Source: Alphaproteobacteria bacterium
GTDB lineage: Bacteria > Pseudomonadota > Alphaproteobacteria > SP197
Direction of reading: 5' to 3'
DNA length: 64,000 nucleotides
NCBI GenBank assembly: GCA_009694045.1
Contig: SHVY01000009.1
Location: forward strand, 5,088 to 69,087
Shown here: positions 52,014-57,865 of the stretch, piece by piece
Position numbering within the stretch: the first letter of the stretch is position 1
How the letters are laid out: every line of letters starts with the position of its first letter
Position numbers and translations under genes: made by a program
The notes under the pieces: generated by a model
Told to the model about the DNA's origin: nothing
Databases searched by the model: none
What the model saw: only the letters and a program-made list of their open reading frames with translations

Positions 52014-52736
52014 TCAGGTCAGGTACTGCCCGCCGTTGATGGTGAGGGTGGAGCCAGTGATGAACCCGGCCTCGTCCGCCACCAGGAAGACGACGGCACG
52101 GGCGATCTCCTCGCCTTTCCCCAGCCGGCCCACGGGGATCCGGGCGATGATCTGGGCGAGCACGTCCTTGGGAACCGCCTGCACCATCGCCGTGTCGATG
52201 TGGCCGGGGCAGATGGCGTTGACGGTGATGCCCTTGCGCGCGCCTTCGAGGGCCAGCGCCTTGGTGAAGCCGATGATCCCCGCCTTGGCCGCGGAATAGT
52301 TGGTCTGGCCGAACTGGCCGGCCTGGCCGTTGATCGAGGAGATGTTGACGATGCGGCCGAAGTTCCGCTCGCGCATCCCGTCGATCACCACGCGGCTGGT
52401 GTTGTAGCAGCTCGTCAGGTTGGCGCCGATGACGTCGGACCACTGCTGTTCGGCCATCTTGTGCAGCGGCACGTCGCGGGTGATCCCGGCGTTGTTGACG
52501 AGGATCTCGATCGGTCCGATCTCGGCCTCGACCTTGGCGATCCCGGCGGCCGTGGCCACCCCGTCGGAGACGTCCCACTGGAACACCGGGATGCCCGTCA
52601 CCCCGCGGAACGCCTCGGCGTTCGGGGCATTGCCGCCGAAGTTGGCGGCGACCTGATAGCCGGCGTCGGCGAGCGCGATGGCGATCGACGCGCCGATCCC
52701 GCGCGTGCCGCCCGTGACCAAGGCAACTCGCGCCAT
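52014..52736 (-). CDS. phaB: Acetoacetyl-CoA reductase
   Basis: TGGTRGIG, NNAGITRD, GQFGQTNYSAAKAG, INGGQY. Confidence 0.95.
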   Translation of the reverse strand: MARVALVTGGTRGIGASIAIALADAGYQVAANFGGNAPNAEAFRGVTGIPVFQWDVSDGVATAAGIAKVEAEIGPIEILVNNAGITRDVPLHKMAEQQWSDVIGANLTSCYNTSRVVIDGMRERNFGRIVNISSINGQAGQFGQTNYSAAKAGIIGFTKALALEGARKGITVNAICPGHIDTAMVQAVPKDVLAQIIARIPVGRLGKGEEIARAVVFLVADEAGFITGSTLTINGGQYLT

Positions 52737-52741
52737 CGCGG

Positions 52742-53995
<1,254 letters not shown>

Positions 53996-54030: not shown

Positions 54031-55245
54031 TCACGGTGCGACCAGGACGCCCTCGAGCCAGTCGGCGAGCGGCCGCCACAACACGGCCTCGGCATTGCGA
54101 CCCACCATCATGCCGATATGTCCCGCCAGGGGGCGATGCACCAGCGCGTGGGGCATGCGCCGCGCCAGGGCCTCGGCCGAGGCGGGCGGGACGATCCGGT
54201 CGCGCGCGGGCACAACGATCAGAGTCGGGCCGCCGTAGCGTTCCGGCGCCACCGCCGCCCCGGCGATGCGCCAGCGCCCCTGCTCCGGCCGGTTCTCGCC
54301 ATACCAGCCGATCATGCACTCCTCGGCCACGGGACCCGCCAAGTCGACGCCGTCGTTGAGCCAGTCCTCCAGGGCGACGAAGGCCTGGGCCTCGGAGGAG
54401 GCCGGATCGAGGCGGGCGAAGGCGCGCAGCTTGTTCGGCACCAGGTTGGGATCGAGGGACGCGAGCAGGGACTGCAACAGGTCCACCGGCAGCACCGGGG
54501 AAAGCCGCAGGAAGGCCGCGAACGGTGGCGCCCCGAACAGACGGATGTGGGCGGGCGCGTCGGCGTGAAAATCCCACGGGGTGGCAAGCAGGGCCAGCCC
54601 GGCGATGTCCGCGGCGCGGCGCTGGGCCAGGGCGAGGGCGAGCAGCCCACCCATGCAGTAGCCGACCACGGCGGGGGGCCGACCGGTCGCCCGCCGCACC
54701 GCATCCAGGGCACCCTCCAGGCGGCCGACCACATAGTCGGTGAGGGTGAAGCCCTGTTCCGCCTCGGCCGGCGCGCCCCAGTCGACGAGGAACGGCCGCA
54801 GGCCCCGCGCGGAGAGGTAGCGGAGGAGGCTGCGATCCGACTCCAGATCGAGGATGTAGCCGCGGTTGATGAGCGACGGAACGAACAGGACCGGCGCGCC
54901 CGCCCCCGGTCCGTAGTCGCGCAGCAGCGTGGTGCCCTCGCGCCACAGCGGCGCCGGGTCGCGCACCCGGCGGCGATAGGGGTGATGGCGATAGGCATCG
55001 ATGCCGGCGAGCACCGCGCCGAGCCTACGTCGCACCTCCGCCGTCAGGGCGTGGGCGACGGCCTCGGGCTCCGCCGCCCCGAGGGCTTGCTCCAGGCTTG
55101 CGCCCGCCGGTGCGAGGCCGGCACTCCAGGAGAGCGAGCCGAGCCTCGCAAGCGGCAAGGCGGCGAGCGAGCTCGTCAAGACGATCCATGACGTCGCGAG
55201 ATGGAGCGGCAGGGGCCGCGGTCCCCGCCTGGTCGCGCGGTTCAT
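54031..55245 (-). CDS. phaC: Short PHA-synthase-like alpha/beta hydrolase
   Basis: VPSLINRGYILDL, DWG, GYCMGG PhaC box, DRIVP Asp, GHIG His; 404 aa, lacks the class I N-terminal domain; upstream of phaAB. Confidence 0.75.
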   Translation of the reverse strand: MNRATRRGPRPLPLHLATSWIVLTSSLAALPLARLGSLSWSAGLAPAGASLEQALGAAEPEAVAHALTAEVRRRLGAVLAGIDAYRHHPYRRRVRDPAPLWREGTTLLRDYGPGAGAPVLFVPSLINRGYILDLESDRSLLRYLSARGLRPFLVDWGAPAEAEQGFTLTDYVVGRLEGALDAVRRATGRPPAVVGYCMGGLLALALAQRRAADIAGLALLATPWDFHADAPAHIRLFGAPPFAAFLRLSPVLPVDLLQSLLASLDPNLVPNKLRAFARLDPASSEAQAFVALEDWLNDGVDLAGPVAEECMIGWYGENRPEQGRWRIAGAAVAPERYGGPTLIVVPARDRIVPPASAEALARRMPHALVHRPLAGHIGMMVGRNAEAVLWRPLADWLEGVLVAP

Positions 55246-55402
55246 GGGGGCCGGTGCCCCACGGCGCCGCGGCCGGAGCGAACGCCATCAGCCGCGACGC
55301 CCAGGAAACCAGCGCCGGATCGGCCATCATGGCCGCGACCTGTTCCTGCCAGAGATCGAGGAATCGGCGGGCCAGCTCGCCGGGATCGTCGGAGGTCGTC
55401 AT
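55025..55402 (-). CDS. Small hypothetical protein overlapping the phaC-like gene (candidate PhaE-like subunit)
   Basis: MTTSDDPGELARRFLDLWQEQVAAMMADP...PSRDVMDRLDELARRLAACEARLALLE; TATATT 6 nt before the ATG suggests a leaderless mRNA. Confidence 0.6.
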   Translation of the reverse strand: MTTSDDPGELARRFLDLWQEQVAAMMADPALVSWASRLMAFAPAAAPWGTGPHEPRDQAGTAAPAAPSRDVMDRLDELARRLAACEARLALLECRPRTGGRKPGASPRGGGARGRRPRPDGGGAT

Positions 55403-55512
55403 CCACGCAATATACGGCCCTCGGGCGGCCCGAGGCGAGGCCCAGCTTTTTGCCATGCCGGGCGTCGAGCGGGCCATGTATGATAGCGGCTGCGCAGGCG
55501 GGACGGAGCACC

Positions 55513-56097
55513 ATGAACACCGAGACGGCCAAGTCGGAACAGCGGATCGTCATCAAGAAATACGCCAACCGGCGCCTCTACAACACCGCCACATCGTCCT
55601 ATGTCACGCTCGACCACCTCTGCCAGATGGTGAAGGACGGGACCGATTTCGTGGTGTTCGACGCGAAATCCGGCGAGGACATCACCCATTCCGTCCTGAC
55701 CCAGATCATCGTCGAGGAGGAGAACAAGGGCCAGAATCTCCTGCCGATCGGCTTCCTGCGCCAGCTGATCAGCTTCTACGGCGACAACCTGCAGACCTTC
55801 CTGCCGCGCTATCTCGAGATGAGCATGGGCCAGTTCACCCATAATCAGGGGCAGATGCGGGAGTATCTCAAGGAGGCGTTCGGCGGCCTGTTCCCCTTCC
55901 CCCATGTCGAGGCCATGGTCAAGGACAACGCCGCCATGTTCCAGCGCGCCATGACCATGTTCTATCCGTTCGGCAACCCCGCGCAAGGTGGGGAACCCGG
56001 ATCCGCCAAGGCTGGAGACCCGCTCGGCGAACTGCGCAACCGCATCAACGAGCTGCAACAGCAGGTCGAGGCCCTGGCCAAGCGGCCGGGGTCCTAG
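55513..56097 (+). CDS. phaR: Polyhydroxyalkanoate synthesis repressor
   Basis: IKKYANRRLYNT, DAKSGEDIT, LRQLISFYG; GGAG RBS. Confidence 0.96.
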   Translation: MNTETAKSEQRIVIKKYANRRLYNTATSSYVTLDHLCQMVKDGTDFVVFDAKSGEDITHSVLTQIIVEEENKGQNLLPIGFLRQLISFYGDNLQTFLPRYLEMSMGQFTHNQGQMREYLKEAFGGLFPFPHVEAMVKDNAAMFQRAMTMFYPFGNPAQGGEPGSAKAGDPLGELRNRINELQQQVEALAKRPGS

Positions 56098-56125: not shown

Positions 56126-57865
56126 TTAACGGGCGACGCCAAGGACGAGGCTCGGCTCCGGGTTTCGGAGCCACGGCCGTGTCACGGAGGGGCGGCCGAA
56201 ATGGTAGCCCTGGAGATAGTTCACGCCGTGGTCGGAGAGGAGCCGCGCCGTCGCCGCGTCCTCGACCCATTCCGCGACGGTCGCCAAACCACAGGCATCG
56301 GCGAGGTTTTGCAGGGCCGCGACATAGGCGATGTCCTCGGGATACTGCGCCAGGCTGGCGGTGAACGACCCGTCGATCTTCACCTGGTCGACGGCGAGAA
56401 CCTTGAGGTTGCGGAACGACGTGTTTCTGGCGCCAAAATCGTCCAGGGCGACATGGCAGCCGACGTCGCGCAAGGTGGCGACGAAGCGGATCGATTCCGC
56501 AAGGTCCTGCATCGCCGCGGTCTCGGTGATCTCGACCGTGAGACGTTCGGCGAGTTCGCGCCGACCCTGGACCAGGGCGCCGAGGCGGCGCAGCCATTGC
56601 CGGTCCGACGTGGTCAGGCCCGAGACGTTGATGGCCAGTCGCAGCCCGGGTACCCGTTCGAGCTCGCGCACCGCAAGTTCGAGGGCCCGGATGTCGAGCC
56701 GCCGGATCAGCCCCGTGCGCTCGGCGACCTTGATCATGGGGCCCGCGCCGTGGGGCATCGCGCCGTCTCCCAGAAGCCGAAGCAGGCATTCGTAGGACAC
56801 CACCTCGCCACTGCCGCTGGCGATGATCGGTTGGAACGCCAGGGCGACCGAATCGTTCTGCAGGCACCACCGGAGCCGTTCGGCGACGGCGAGATCGCGA
56901 TGGACCTCGCTGCCGTAAGTCGACCCGTGGCGATGGCCCATCACCGTCACCCGCGCGTCCTTTCCGCCGCGGCGCAGGGTTTAGTCCGCCCGTTCCATGA
57001 CATCGTGGGCGGTCAGCTCCCCGCCCGGAAACGCGATCGCGCAGATCGACGCGGACACATGCAGCGGACCGAAATCGCACGGGATCGGCGTGCCGGTCAC
57101 CACCGCGGCGATCTTGGCGACGACGGCTTCGACGTTGGCGTGCGGGCAGCCGTCCAGCACGATCCCGAAGCGATCCAGCCCCGCCCGACCGACGGTATCG
57201 CTATCCCGCACGCAACGGTCGAGCTATTGGGACACCGCGACCATGGCGGCGTCGGCGACCTCGCGGCCATAGACGTCGCCGAGAAGGGCCAGGTCATCGA
57301 CCGCCACGACGACATAGGCCCCGGTCGATGCGTACCGGCGCGCGTAGGCAAGGGCATGGTCCAGGGATTCGCGCAGGCGCTGCAGGTTGTAGTGGCCCGT
57401 CAGATCGTCGTAGTTCGCGCGCCGTTCGAGTTGGGTTTCACGTTCCTTGTTGGCGGTCACCAGGCGAAGCACGCCGCACACGCGACGCGCGACGCCGTCG
57501 GGCCCGATCTCCGCGCTACCGCGATCCTGGACCCAGCGGACGCTGCCGGCACGGCCCCGCATCCGGCACTCGATCTCGAAGGCCGCGGCCGATTGAAAAC
57601 GGCGGCCCAGGCGATCCTCGATCGCCGCCAGGTCGTCGGGATGAACCCGCCCCATGAGGGTCATGCGATCGTCGGGGCGCGGGCCCACGGCGAGGTCCAG
57701 CGCCCTGATCGGATCCGTGGACCACGCGACCCGGCCGCTGGCAAGGTCCCAGGCGTAGGCCACATCGCCGGCAGCGTTCAAGGCGCCGCGAATCCACGGT
57801 CGCGAGGGGATGCCCTCGACGCGAGGTCGCACGGAAGTAGCCACCTTCCTGGTCGCTCGCTTCAT
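56126..57865 (-). pseudogene. PAS-GGDEF(degenerate)-EAL protein interrupted by two in-frame stops
   Basis: One reading frame with TAG at 57224-57226 and TAA at 56981-56983; PAS (VHPDD, RWVQDRG), DDLTG, GLDRF, then ECLLR, EITE, DDFG, KID, QGY. Confidence 0.8.

Follow-up and report, generated by a model that had tools for sequence, protein, structure and literature searches.

A conserved small gene in the −1 frame over the start of a short phaC-like gene, and its product, a probable partner of the PHA synthase

The window analysed here, a stretch of 64,000 nucleotides from an alphaproteobacterial contig, carries a PHA locus in which the regulator gene phaR (55513..56097, plus strand; PF07879 and PF05233; TIGR01848 at 151.9 bits against a cut-off of 109.45) diverges from a minus-strand series made up of a small gene (55025..55402), a phaC-like gene (54031..55245), the acetyl-CoA acetyltransferase gene phaA (52742..53917; TIGR01930 at 479.9 bits against 240.55) and the acetoacetyl-CoA reductase gene phaB (52014..52736; TIGR01829 at 343.6 bits against 302.1). 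These above-cut-off NCBIfam scores bear out the position between phaR and phaAB that the initial annotation had assigned to the module, with the small gene as the first cistron of a small-gene/phaC/phaA/phaB operon. Its open reading frame, recovered by translation as first described, encodes 125 aa from the ATG at 55402 to the TAG stop at 55025-55027 and shares 221 nt with phaC (55025..55245), where small-protein residues 53-125 are read in frame −1 and residues 1-74 of the phaC-like protein in frame 0; within the overlap GPRPLPLHL belongs to the phaC frame and PSRDVMDRLDELARRLAACEARLALLE to the small frame, again as noted at the outset. A further 52 codons of the small gene lie outside phaC. 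An alternative upstream ATG at 55477 would extend the product to 150 aa, a form that we rejected as relatives align from the ATG at 55402 and a conserved hexamer precedes that codon. No Rfam family reaches its gathering score across 54700-55800.

The phaC-like ORF encodes 404 aa from its ATG and contains the catalytic triad expected from the initial annotation, in the motifs GYCMGG (Cys197, 54655-54657), DRIVP (Asp349, 54199-54201) and GHIG (His376, 54118-54120). All three residues are invariant in 27 sequences, and 9knj has its own Cys box and Asp at the matching alignment positions. The AF2 model (mean pLDDT 86.4) has a three-helix N-terminal extension (helices 12-34, 42-57 and 60-86), and its top Foldseek matches in the PDB are all PHA synthases (9knj/k/l, 5xav, 6k3c, 5hz2 and 5t6o; E from 2e-16 to 2e-13), with other hydrolases lower and sequence matches to solved PHA synthases reaching down to 2e-18. 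By fold and by Cys-Asp-His triad, the 404-aa protein is thus a member of the PHA synthase superfamily. It has no class I N-terminal domain, as had been stated: PF07167 matches with the last 28 of its 173 positions alone (22.8 bits, cut-off 23.7), the class I model TIGR01838 scores 81 bits against 622, and class I enzymes measure about 560-600 aa. The class III model TIGR01836 aligns residues 116-398 with profile positions 62-348 at 130.3 bits, under its cut-off of 365.3.

PHA synthases are divided into four classes by subunit make-up. In Rhodospirillum, Azospirillum and related bacteria, the phaC-phaA-phaB operon encodes a short synthase that is taken to consist of a single subunit, or is simply labelled 'alpha/beta fold hydrolase'. 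The RefSeq label of an Azospirillum homologue is of the latter kind. In Rhodospirillum rubrum, as described in the available excerpts of PMC4026134 and PMC12983893, phaC1-phaA-phaB and a divergent phaR have the same gene order and orientation as here, PhaC1 is only 14-18% identical to its class I paralogues, full loss of PHB requires deletion of both phaC1 and phaC2, and the passages on the phaC1 operon within these excerpts mention no small upstream gene. Operon layout, the sole basis of this assignment, suggests that the synthase in the window is an orthologue of R. rubrum PhaC1. We infer that the 404-aa protein polymerises 3-hydroxyacyl-CoA because it shares an operon with phaA, phaB and phaR and because of the genetics of R. 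rubrum PhaC1 (PMC12983893, in excerpt).

The small protein belongs to a family, with at least 265 relatives at E ≤ 1e-3 in a search of cluster representatives, mostly 100-140 aa long and aligned starting at residues 1-9. Among at least 594 related loci we analysed the best 80, two of which are cut by a contig end. In all 80 of these best-scoring loci the small frame lies upstream of and overlaps a phaC-like gene, on the same strand and in frame −1, and in all 80, as in the window, the small gene stands beside a short phaC in the same orientation; the overlap spans 146-353 nt (median 209). The check proposed with the initial annotation, whether the small frame is maintained in relatives, came out in its favour, the frame being stop-free and kept in 80/80 of this best-scoring set. 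The examined loci are divergent, with a median phaC core identity of 0.56 and values above 0.8 in 16 of 3240 pairs. Where the small gene can be aligned, its ATG falls at profile column 1 in 53/53 loci, and its single-coded part has entropies of 0.98, 0.70 and 1.39 at codon positions 1, 2 and 3, a coding signature. W18, R81 and E86 are invariant in the family alignment, with conservation of 90% or more at L17 and D28. The small-frame stop is found at phaC column 65 in 37 of 74 relatives and at column 63 in 10 of 74, and lies at column 81 in the window. The column-65 stop is built from a T-ending phaC codon followed by GA, and CCT accounts for 21 of the 43 Pro codons at this place, against 5% of Pro codons elsewhere. 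On these comparative grounds we regard the small ORF as a genuine gene, conserved across many Alphaproteobacteria, and not as an artefact of GC-rich DNA.

The small gene also has a distinctive start. The proposed leaderless-type start gained support, in that the −10-like hexamer TATATT (55409..55414, minus strand) ends 6 nt ahead of the ATG, and 65 of 79 loci have a TAnnnT hexamer whose end lies 6-10 nt from the small-gene start codon (TATACT in 30, TATAGT in 23, TATAAT in 4, TATATT in 4 and others in 4), compared with 1.9% at random positions. No SD-like 4-mer precedes the small-gene ATG in any of 53 aligned loci, and a generic sigma-70 scan returned no full promoter at the small-gene start. 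A −10 element near the AUG together with the lack of a Shine-Dalgarno sequence is the pattern that marks leaderless mRNAs at the sequence level; the TATAnT-type hexamer and the missing Shine-Dalgarno therefore suggest a leaderless start, and the transcript probably begins at or near the AUG. The phaC ATG in the window likewise has no SD, as had been pointed out, GGAG, GAGG and AGGA all being absent from the preceding 22 nt. Across the best 80 of the at least 594 loci, every locus has a phaC start codon, ATG in 72, in the interval from the upstream stop to the conserved Arg, and an SD-like motif precedes a candidate start in 34 of the 80, the chance expectation being roughly 17.

Length says little about whether the small frame is coding: alternative-frame ORFs of 228 and 316 aa occur inside the same phaC, and about 58% of synonymous shuffles leave the −1 frame open. 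What raises the small ORF above chance is its conservation rather than its length. When phaC was shuffled synonymously, none of 100 shuffles reached the real small-frame score in 77 of 79 loci (mean z 5.5). In a train/test design, phaC columns 28-46 gave z=7.6, with 40/40 loci beating every shuffle, whereas five control regions of phaC gave z=0.8-2.1, with 4-19 of 40 loci beating all shuffles; the real small frame has stops in 0/40 loci in columns 28-46, compared with 7-18 of 40 in the control regions. Codon choice in phaC follows suit. Leu at columns 35 and 38 is written as TTG in 65/65 and 54/54 loci, a codon with a 10.3% share of Leu in the rest of the gene, and AGG, which elsewhere accounts for 2.5% of Arg codons, encodes the column-39 Arg in 29/35. 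These rare phaC codons under the coiled coil preserve small-frame Leu, Glu and Arg, and the residues that replace Leu or Arg in phaC at columns 35, 38 and 39 (W, S and K) all preserve the small-frame Leu or Glu. Entropy at phaC codon position 2 exceeds that at position 3 in 13 of 19 coiled-coil columns but in only 60 of 335 columns elsewhere, and over the same overlap nucleotides the small frame has a higher median identity (0.58) than the phaC frame (0.47). Synonymous variation in the overlap is accordingly both suppressed and re-patterned, as judged by shuffles, codon usage and position-specific entropy, which is the outcome that the initial annotation had named as supporting its claim.

The aligned loci show that both frames are open and each under purifying selection, the defining property of dual coding, and that the constraint alternates along the overlap. 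Over its first part (55198..55230, minus strand; RRGPRPLPLHL, phaC residues 6-16), the synthase frame is seen to rule, with the consensus R.GPRPLPLHL and a loose Ala/Pro/Ser/Thr-rich linker tolerated in the small protein: entropy is 0.44, 0.23 and 1.18 at phaC codon positions 1, 2 and 3, variation in the small-frame columns is confined to the first position, and phaC G8, P9, R10, P11, L14, H15 and L16 are conserved at 90% or more. Over the next part (55121..55198, minus strand), the substitution patterns show the small frame to rule, its coiled-coil helix (residues 69-94, DRLDELARRLAACEARLALLE) following the consensus LDELARRLAA.E.RLA.LE, while the synthase, at about residues 17-42, takes such residues as are thereby permitted. 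The remainder of the small gene (55028..55120, minus strand) encodes residues 95-125, a disordered tail rich in Arg, Lys, Gly and Pro that is longer here than in most relatives; basic tails occur family-wide.

AF2 models the small protein as helices 7-27, 29-41 and 69-94, with block-mean pLDDT values of 88-97 for residues 11-40, 90-97 for residues 71-90 and 54-67 for residues 101-125, the last having no predicted secondary structure. The N-terminal helices (residues 7-41; LARRFLDLWQ..DP) are encoded at 55280..55384 on the minus strand, in single-frame DNA upstream of phaC, and are the predicted docking surface for the synthase. Modelling of the pair, one of the checks suggested with the initial annotation, gave a score of 0.76 in 3/3 runs against 0.00 for the best of three controls, with at least 67% of contacts in common between runs and a partner pLDDT of at least 56; among solved complexes 116 of 157 attained this scoring mark, and among mismatched pairs 2 of 215 did, counts that apply here only roughly because the alignments were custom-made. 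The predicted interface joins small-protein residues 5-39 to synthase residues 22-74, 231-241 and 263-271, and the model leaves the coiled coil and tail unplaced. From these models, the small gene probably encodes a partner that docks onto the synthase; PhaC binding, one of the traits of a PhaE/PhaR-type subunit, is supported in silico, through complex-model confidence.

Such a partner would resemble PhaE of class III and Bacillus PhaR of class IV synthases (PF09712) in being a small helical protein whose gene adjoins that of a short PhaC (about 350-400 aa) devoid of the class I N-terminal domain. The likeness extends to the roughly 80-residue core of the known partners, a Trp-containing N-terminal helix, a spacer and a Pro-Ser/Thr-x-x-Asp turn into a coiled coil, with turn motifs APSRDVMDRLDEL here, VPTKEDVANVASL in Priestia PhaR and VPSQHDFDEL in a Rhizobium PhaE-like protein. 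In addition, Haloferax PhaE and the Rhizobium PhaE-like gene lie upstream of phaC and co-oriented with it, as the small gene does here. However, homology to PhaE, to which the earlier reading had looked, gained no support from the family model: PF09712 is matched by 0/36 members at E ≤ 1 and 0/150 at E ≤ 0.01, while three of three known partner subunits used as positive controls match it at 52.7, 28.3 and 19.7 bits. The NCBIfam models, TIGR01834 included, do not match the small protein, and its profile searched against solved structures finds generic coiled coils as the sole matches. Profile alignment by hhalign gives a probability of 30% against Haloferax PhaE, over 26 columns that pair the coiled coil with the C-terminal helix only, 2.3% against the Rhizobium PhaE-like protein and 0.5% against Priestia PhaR. 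In language-model space (Atlas), the named clusters nearest to the small protein are those of short PhaE proteins; the nearest three carry PF09712 PhaE in 12-32% of their members, at scores of 0.87, 0.85 and 0.84 that lie below the 0.9 lead threshold. The small protein further differs in size, at 125 aa here and a family median of 144 aa against 182 and 232 aa for two PhaE-type partners and 199 aa for Priestia PhaR, and in arrangement, since PhaE-type genes meet phaC through a 4-nt overlap or a short gap and the small gene through an out-of-frame overlap of 146-353 nt. Also unlike PhaE and PhaR, it is probably translated from a leaderless start and its product ends in a basic disordered tail.

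Taking these lines together, we consider it likely that a probably leaderless small gene heads the pha operon, with its last 73 codons running in frame −1 over the first 74 codons of phaC, and that its product is a synthase partner with a PhaE/PhaR-like role. In the proposed mechanism, the small protein would comprise two N-terminal helices, a disordered linker, a single coiled-coil helix and a basic tail. The N-terminal helices would dock on the three-helix N-terminal extension of the synthase and on the helices between its catalytic Cys and Asp, the coiled coil would gather two or three synthase molecules, as PhaE and Bacillus PhaR do for class III and IV synthases, and attachment of the complex to the nucleoid or granule may fall to the basic tail. 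The synthase itself would be translated separately, from its own start codon. The two-component, dual-coded synthase module posited in the initial annotation is supported by three of its four proposed computational tests: frame conservation, synonymous patterns and the complex model. We advance more tentatively, and at slightly less than even confidence, the idea of a fifth, two-component class of PHA synthase, in which a short PhaC1-type enzyme would pair with a leaderless mini-subunit, related to PhaE very distantly or similar to it by convergence, whose gene lies out of frame over the docking helices at the synthase N-terminus, so that about 200 nt would encode part of both partners under dual-coding constraint throughout Rhodospirillales-like Alphaproteobacteria.

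Long same-strand, out-of-frame overlaps are known in bacteria from comS inside srfA in Bacillus and rpmH inside rnpA in Thermus. As in these pairs, one stretch of DNA here would yield two functional proteins from different frames of the same strand; unlike in them, binding between the two products is predicted, the overlap encodes synthase helices that make the predicted contact, and the pair is kept in at least 80 species-level genomes.

A real small protein need not be a synthase subunit. It could instead organise granules or regulate, as a PhaM-like activator or tether that holds granules to DNA by the basic tail, as a phasin-like coat or by modulating PhaR, a reading that we hold to be unlikely without being negligible. 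The likeness would be to PhaM of Cupriavidus necator, which combines a coiled coil with a basic tail, stimulates the synthase on binding it and tethers granules to the nucleoid; it has roughly double the length of the small protein and is not known to be encoded beside phaC. The coiled coil and the Arg/Lys-rich disordered tail suit such a role, as do the divergent placement of the small gene relative to phaR and the lack of detectable PhaE homology by PF09712. Phasin models (PF09361 and PF05597) speak on both sides, 1 of 150 members giving a weak Phasin_2 match (E=0.0076, below cut-off) and the other 149 none. The complex model, on the other hand, seats the small protein on the synthase with a high score, as would also be compatible with a PhaM-like activator that binds its enzyme; moreover, the small gene is welded to phaC in all of the best 80 of at least 594 loci, and in one case the two are fused. 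This fusion, known from a single representative and from its protein sequence alone, is a 418-aa protein in which the small protein continues in frame into the hydrolase core; it preserves the full small protein but is short of about 100 residues at the synthase N-terminus. Longer forms, with the two proteins fused, were absent from our search results, which is weak evidence.

The same fusion might be taken to mean that the 5' portion of the small ORF simply encodes the synthase N-terminus, with a programmed +1 ribosomal frameshift within the overlap linking the two, the rest of the small frame being functionless. That the two frames run together in each of the best 80 of at least 594 loci and that the phaC ATG in the window has no SD would fit such a scheme. 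We rejected it as very improbable: the small frame is most strongly selected well within the overlap and closes with a conserved stop, phaC possesses a start codon of its own in 80/80 of those best-ranked loci (ATG in 72), and the fusion, in keeping the whole small protein and missing about 100 residues of the synthase N-terminus, is therefore unlike a frameshift product. Still less probable, in our estimate, is an upstream overlapping ORF that tunes phaC expression through translation and whose peptide is irrelevant; ribosomes from the leaderless ATG must indeed cross the phaC start, which often has no SD, but amino acids are conserved with synonymous variation at L17, W18, D28, R81 and E86, and both the helices and the interface are confidently predicted. 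Least credible of all is a chance ORF in GC-rich DNA whose family is a by-product of conservation in the synthase N-terminus: it can appeal to the other long alternative-frame ORFs, to the frequency with which shuffles leave the −1 frame open and to each frame's consensus being the frameshifted consensus of the other, and it is refuted, so far as sequence comparison can refute it, by the coding signature in the 52 codons outside phaC, by the failure of synthase-preserving shuffles to reproduce small-frame conservation, by variation at phaC second positions and by the conserved promoter hexamer and ATG.

If the conserved synthase partner that we favour is real, it would alter how such synthases are expressed for bioplastic production: constructs that begin at the annotated phaC start omit the partner's N-terminal docking half, an omission that might explain weak effects of phaC1 over-expression. 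In the literature that we searched, which lay outside most subscription journals, we found no description of a small gene upstream of or overlapping such a phaC. The overlap represents long, deeply conserved same-strand dual coding in bacteria with a clean signature, its constraint alternating over about 200 nt, and is of use as a benchmark for gene finders, by which the small gene is here missed or phaC shortened. The statement that gene callers overlook the small gene stands in part: neither the protein lists of this window nor an Azospirillum plasmid's gene table contains it, whereas at least 265 representatives of the family are already in databases as hypothetical proteins.

The minus-strand phaC-like ORF at window positions 54031-55245 (404 amino acids from its ATG, with the GYCMGG, DRIVP and GHIG motifs) shares 221 nucleotides with a 125-residue ORF on the same strand, which begins with an ATG at 55402, ends at 55025 and is read in frame -1 relative to phaC. 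All the features on which the initial annotation had built its proposal of a hidden synthase partner are present, including a TATATT hexamer ending 6 nucleotides upstream of the small ORF's ATG, the lack of a Shine-Dalgarno motif before the phaC ATG in the window, a divergent phaR (TIGR01848, 151.9 bits, above cut-off) and downstream phaA (TIGR01930) and phaB (TIGR01829) genes, both above their cut-offs. The length of an ORF by itself means little in such GC-rich DNA, and the same phaC gene contains further alternative-frame ORFs of 228 and 316 amino acids. The lines of evidence below nonetheless establish that the small gene is real and conserved and forms a dual-coding overlap with the 5' end of the gene for a short PHA synthase, and complex modeling predicts that its product binds the synthase; the initial reading is thus upheld as far as sequence and modeling reach, and we rate the putative system as a two-component PHA synthase, unusual both in its partner and in its gene geometry. 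In layout, the window resembles the Rhodospirillum rubrum phaC1-phaA-phaB operon with its divergent phaR, as presented in two reports (PMC4026134, PMC12983893). The literature searched, with partial coverage, yielded no description of the small gene or of its overlap with phaC.

The larger gene encodes a short PHA synthase with an N-terminal extension of its own. It scores 130 bits against the class III PhaC model TIGR01836, far below the cut-off of 365, and its match to PhaC_N is restricted to the last 28 profile positions; its sequence matches to solved PHA synthases extend down to E=2e-18, and the best PDB matches of its AF2 model (mean pLDDT 86.4) are all PHA synthases. More than 7000 relatives of 375-452 amino acids cover 91-100% of the protein. 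An alignment of 27 relatives shows C197, D349 and H376 to be invariant and the N-terminal motif R.GPRPLPLHLA, followed by SSLAALPL.R.GSLPW, to be conserved, which argues that the phaC frame is truly coding across the overlap; in the AF2 model the extension forms three helices (residues 12-34, 42-57 and 60-86). The database version of the window's synthase (P0001, 382 amino acids) was called from a TTG that lies 22 codons after the ATG, and this start is probably wrong, because the omitted stretch (55180-55245, minus strand) carries the conserved R.GPRPLPLHL.

Species-representative genomes were scanned for synthase relatives, which gave at least 594 loci, of which the best 80 were kept; these span Rhodospirillales, Kiloniellales, Azospirillum, Inquilinus, Nitrospirillum, Thalassobaculum, Pelagibius and many MAGs. 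In all 80, including two cut by a contig end that retain only the C-terminal part of the small protein, the small-protein profile matches on the same strand in frame -1, in an ORF that begins ahead of phaC and extends into it. Among these best 80 of at least 594 loci the small proteins measure 100-205 amino acids (median 144) and the overlaps 146-353 nucleotides (median 209), and the arrangement is universal. The loci are divergent, with a median phaC core identity of 0.56 and values above 0.8 in only 16 of 3240 pairs.

Since the two consensus sequences are frameshifted versions of each other, conservation of either could be a by-product of the other, and we used codon-level data to tell true dual selection from such by-product conservation. 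The phaC frame dominates in columns 11-21 of the phaC profile (R.GPRPLPLHL), where variation falls on phaC third positions (entropy 0.44/0.23/1.18 at positions 1/2/3) and the small protein is a loose Ala/Pro/Ser/Thr linker. The pattern is inverted in columns 28-46, which encode the small protein's coiled coil: the small frame dominates there, and the most variable phaC position is the second (0.72/1.13/0.90), the wobble position of the small frame. Entropy is higher at position 2 than at position 3 in 13 of these 19 columns, as compared with 60 of 335 in the remaining gene. At column 35, Leu is encoded by TTG in 65 of 65 cases and is otherwise replaced by Trp (TGG) or Ser (TCN), so that the small frame keeps Leu (CTN); at column 38, TTG accounts for 54 of 54 Leu codons, the other residues are mainly Trp (TGG) and Ser (TCG), and a small-frame Leu (CTN) is kept with TTG, TGG or TCG. 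Elsewhere in phaC, TTG makes up 10.3% of Leu codons. Similarly, Arg at column 39 is AGG in 29 of 35 cases (2.5% of Arg codons elsewhere), or is replaced by Lys (AAR), with an invariant Glu (GAR) kept in the small frame, and at column 41 phaC has mainly Gly, Ala or Asp while the small frame, after a C-ending codon, keeps Arg (CGN). Over the same nucleotides, median identity is 0.58 in the small frame versus 0.47 in the phaC frame.

When synonymous codons were resampled with the synthase protein and its codon usage kept, the real small-frame profile score was matched by 0 of 100 shuffles in 77 of 79 loci (mean z 5.5). Suppressed synonymous variation, by which dual coding could be checked, is found in columns 28-46 in a train/test design, with z=7.6 and all 50 shuffles beaten in 40 of 40 loci, versus z=0.8-2.1 and 4-19 of 40 loci for five control stretches of phaC. 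None of the 40 loci has a real stop in the -1 frame over columns 11-46, whereas 7-18 of 40 do in the control stretches; the +1 frame of the overlap, whose nucleotides are conserved too, is yet interrupted by stops in 33-40 of 40 loci. The 52 single-coded codons of the small gene that precede phaC display an ordinary coding signature (0.98/0.70/1.39), with synonymous variation at conserved residues. These sequence patterns indicate that both frames are under selection, with the constraint alternating along the overlap.

All 53 aligned loci have an ATG at column 1 of the small-gene profile, none of them with an SD-like 4-mer upstream, and a TAnnnT hexamer ends 6-10 nucleotides before the start in 65 of 79 loci (TATACT 30, TATAGT 23, TATAAT 4, TATATT 4, others 4), versus 1.9% of random positions. 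This geometry is that of a -10 box with transcription from the AUG, so that the small gene is probably leaderless, as initially suspected; a generic scan for promoters detected no complete sigma-70 site at the small gene in the window. In all 80 loci, phaC has a start codon that comes after the preceding in-frame stop and ahead of the conserved Arg, an ATG in 72 of them, and an SD-like motif precedes a candidate start in 34 of 80, little more than chance. The position of the small-gene stop is conserved as well: of 74 loci, 37 have it at column 65 and 10 at column 63, and TGA is the codon used in 68 of 81. The column-65 stop arises where a T-ending codon (CCT, or GCT in the case of Ala) precedes GA within the synthase D-P-E motif, and CCT makes up 21 of 43 Pro codons at that column versus 5% elsewhere. 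In the window the stop comes 16 codons beyond the column-65 position (equivalent to about 55050-55060), hence the longest basic tail seen.

Existing annotation passes over the gene on Azospirillum sp. TSH58 plasmid p04 (NZ_CP022366.1), where the gene order is phaR, a 515-nucleotide gap, an 'alpha/beta fold hydrolase', a thiolase and phbB: the stretch without a listed gene (2443-2957 of that locus) contains the small ORF, with CATACT 7 nucleotides before the likely ATG, and because PLSDB lists the genes incompletely, the original p04 record may differ. When 1.84 billion cluster representatives were scanned in full by phmmer, the small protein as query retrieved 265 relatives at E<=1e-3 and 9 at E<=1e-10 (top match E=2e-20, 61% identity), named 'hypothetical' where sources name them; no Pfam or NCBIfam family was reached. 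Most are 100-140 amino acids long, with alignments that begin at residues 1-9. Family members have an N-terminal helix (LARRFLDLWQ.Q, with an invariant W18), which a low-complexity linker of variable sequence connects to a coiled coil (LDELARRLAA.E.RLA.LE, with R81 and E86 likewise invariant), and they end in a basic tail. AF2 places helices at residues 7-27, 29-41 and 69-94 and leaves the remainder disordered (mean pLDDT 79). In one case, known from its protein sequence, the complete small protein is fused in frame to the hydrolase core of the synthase, without the first ~100 synthase residues; this 418-residue protein (P0233) belongs to a Lys-rich branch of the family with lower GC.

Modeling of the small protein with the synthase scored 0.76 in each of three runs versus 0.00 for the best of three controls, and so passes a mark attained by 116 of the 157 complexes of solved structure and by 2 of the 215 mismatched pairs, counts that hold only roughly here because the alignments were self-made. 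At least 67% of contacts agree between runs, with a partner pLDDT of at least 56; we know of no solved PhaC-partner complex, which makes a pass from a memorized structure unlikely. The modeled interface joins residues 5-39 of the small protein, its single-coded N-terminal helices, to synthase residues 22-74, in helices encoded within the overlap, and to residues 231-241 and 263-271, helices between the catalytic Cys and Asp that by position would correspond to the cap site of class I synthases. The coiled coil and tail have no placement in the model. In our reading, the small protein would dock on the synthase and its coiled coil would oligomerize the enzyme, while the basic tail may attach to DNA or to the surface of the granule.

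By sequence, the small protein does not qualify as a member of the PhaE family. It was compared with Haloferax PhaE, Priestia PhaR and a PhaE-like protein of Rhizobium, all known partners taken from annotated plasmids. In these three, as in the small protein, a helix containing Trp and then a spacer precede a Pro-Ser/Thr-x-x-Asp turn and a coiled coil; however, all three match the last ~80 positions of PF09712, whereas 0 of 36 and 0 of 150 small-protein family members do. Comparison by hhalign gave 30% probability with Haloferax PhaE, over the coiled coil only, and 2.3% and 0.5% with the Rhizobium protein and Priestia PhaR, respectively; the nearest named language-model clusters are short PhaE-family proteins (0.87, 0.85, 0.84), with scores short of the level at which the tool sees more than a lead. 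By analogy, the small protein plausibly functions like PhaE or PhaR. On Rhizobium leguminosarum plasmid pRLa11, a 'hypothetical protein' (1595-2293 of that locus) directly upstream of a class III phaC is an unannotated PhaE, as it matches PF09712 at 52.7 bits.

Between phaR and the small gene, many of the related loci (L002, L008, L010, L015, L020, L022 and L024 among them) have recurrent palindromes rich in TGC, for example TTGCAGCGCAA or TGCAACGCAA, with CTGCGCAG (55490-55497, minus strand) as the window counterpart. PhaR binds TGC-rich palindromic sites of this type, and these could be candidate PhaR operators. Further along the window, a minus-strand PAS-GGDEF-EAL signaling gene (56126-57865) is apparently broken into three successive ORFs in different frames (57865-57224, 57211-56981 and 56950-56126), in which the EAL part, the PAS domain and the start of the GGDEF domain are recognized; it may be a pseudogene or reflect sequencing frameshifts.
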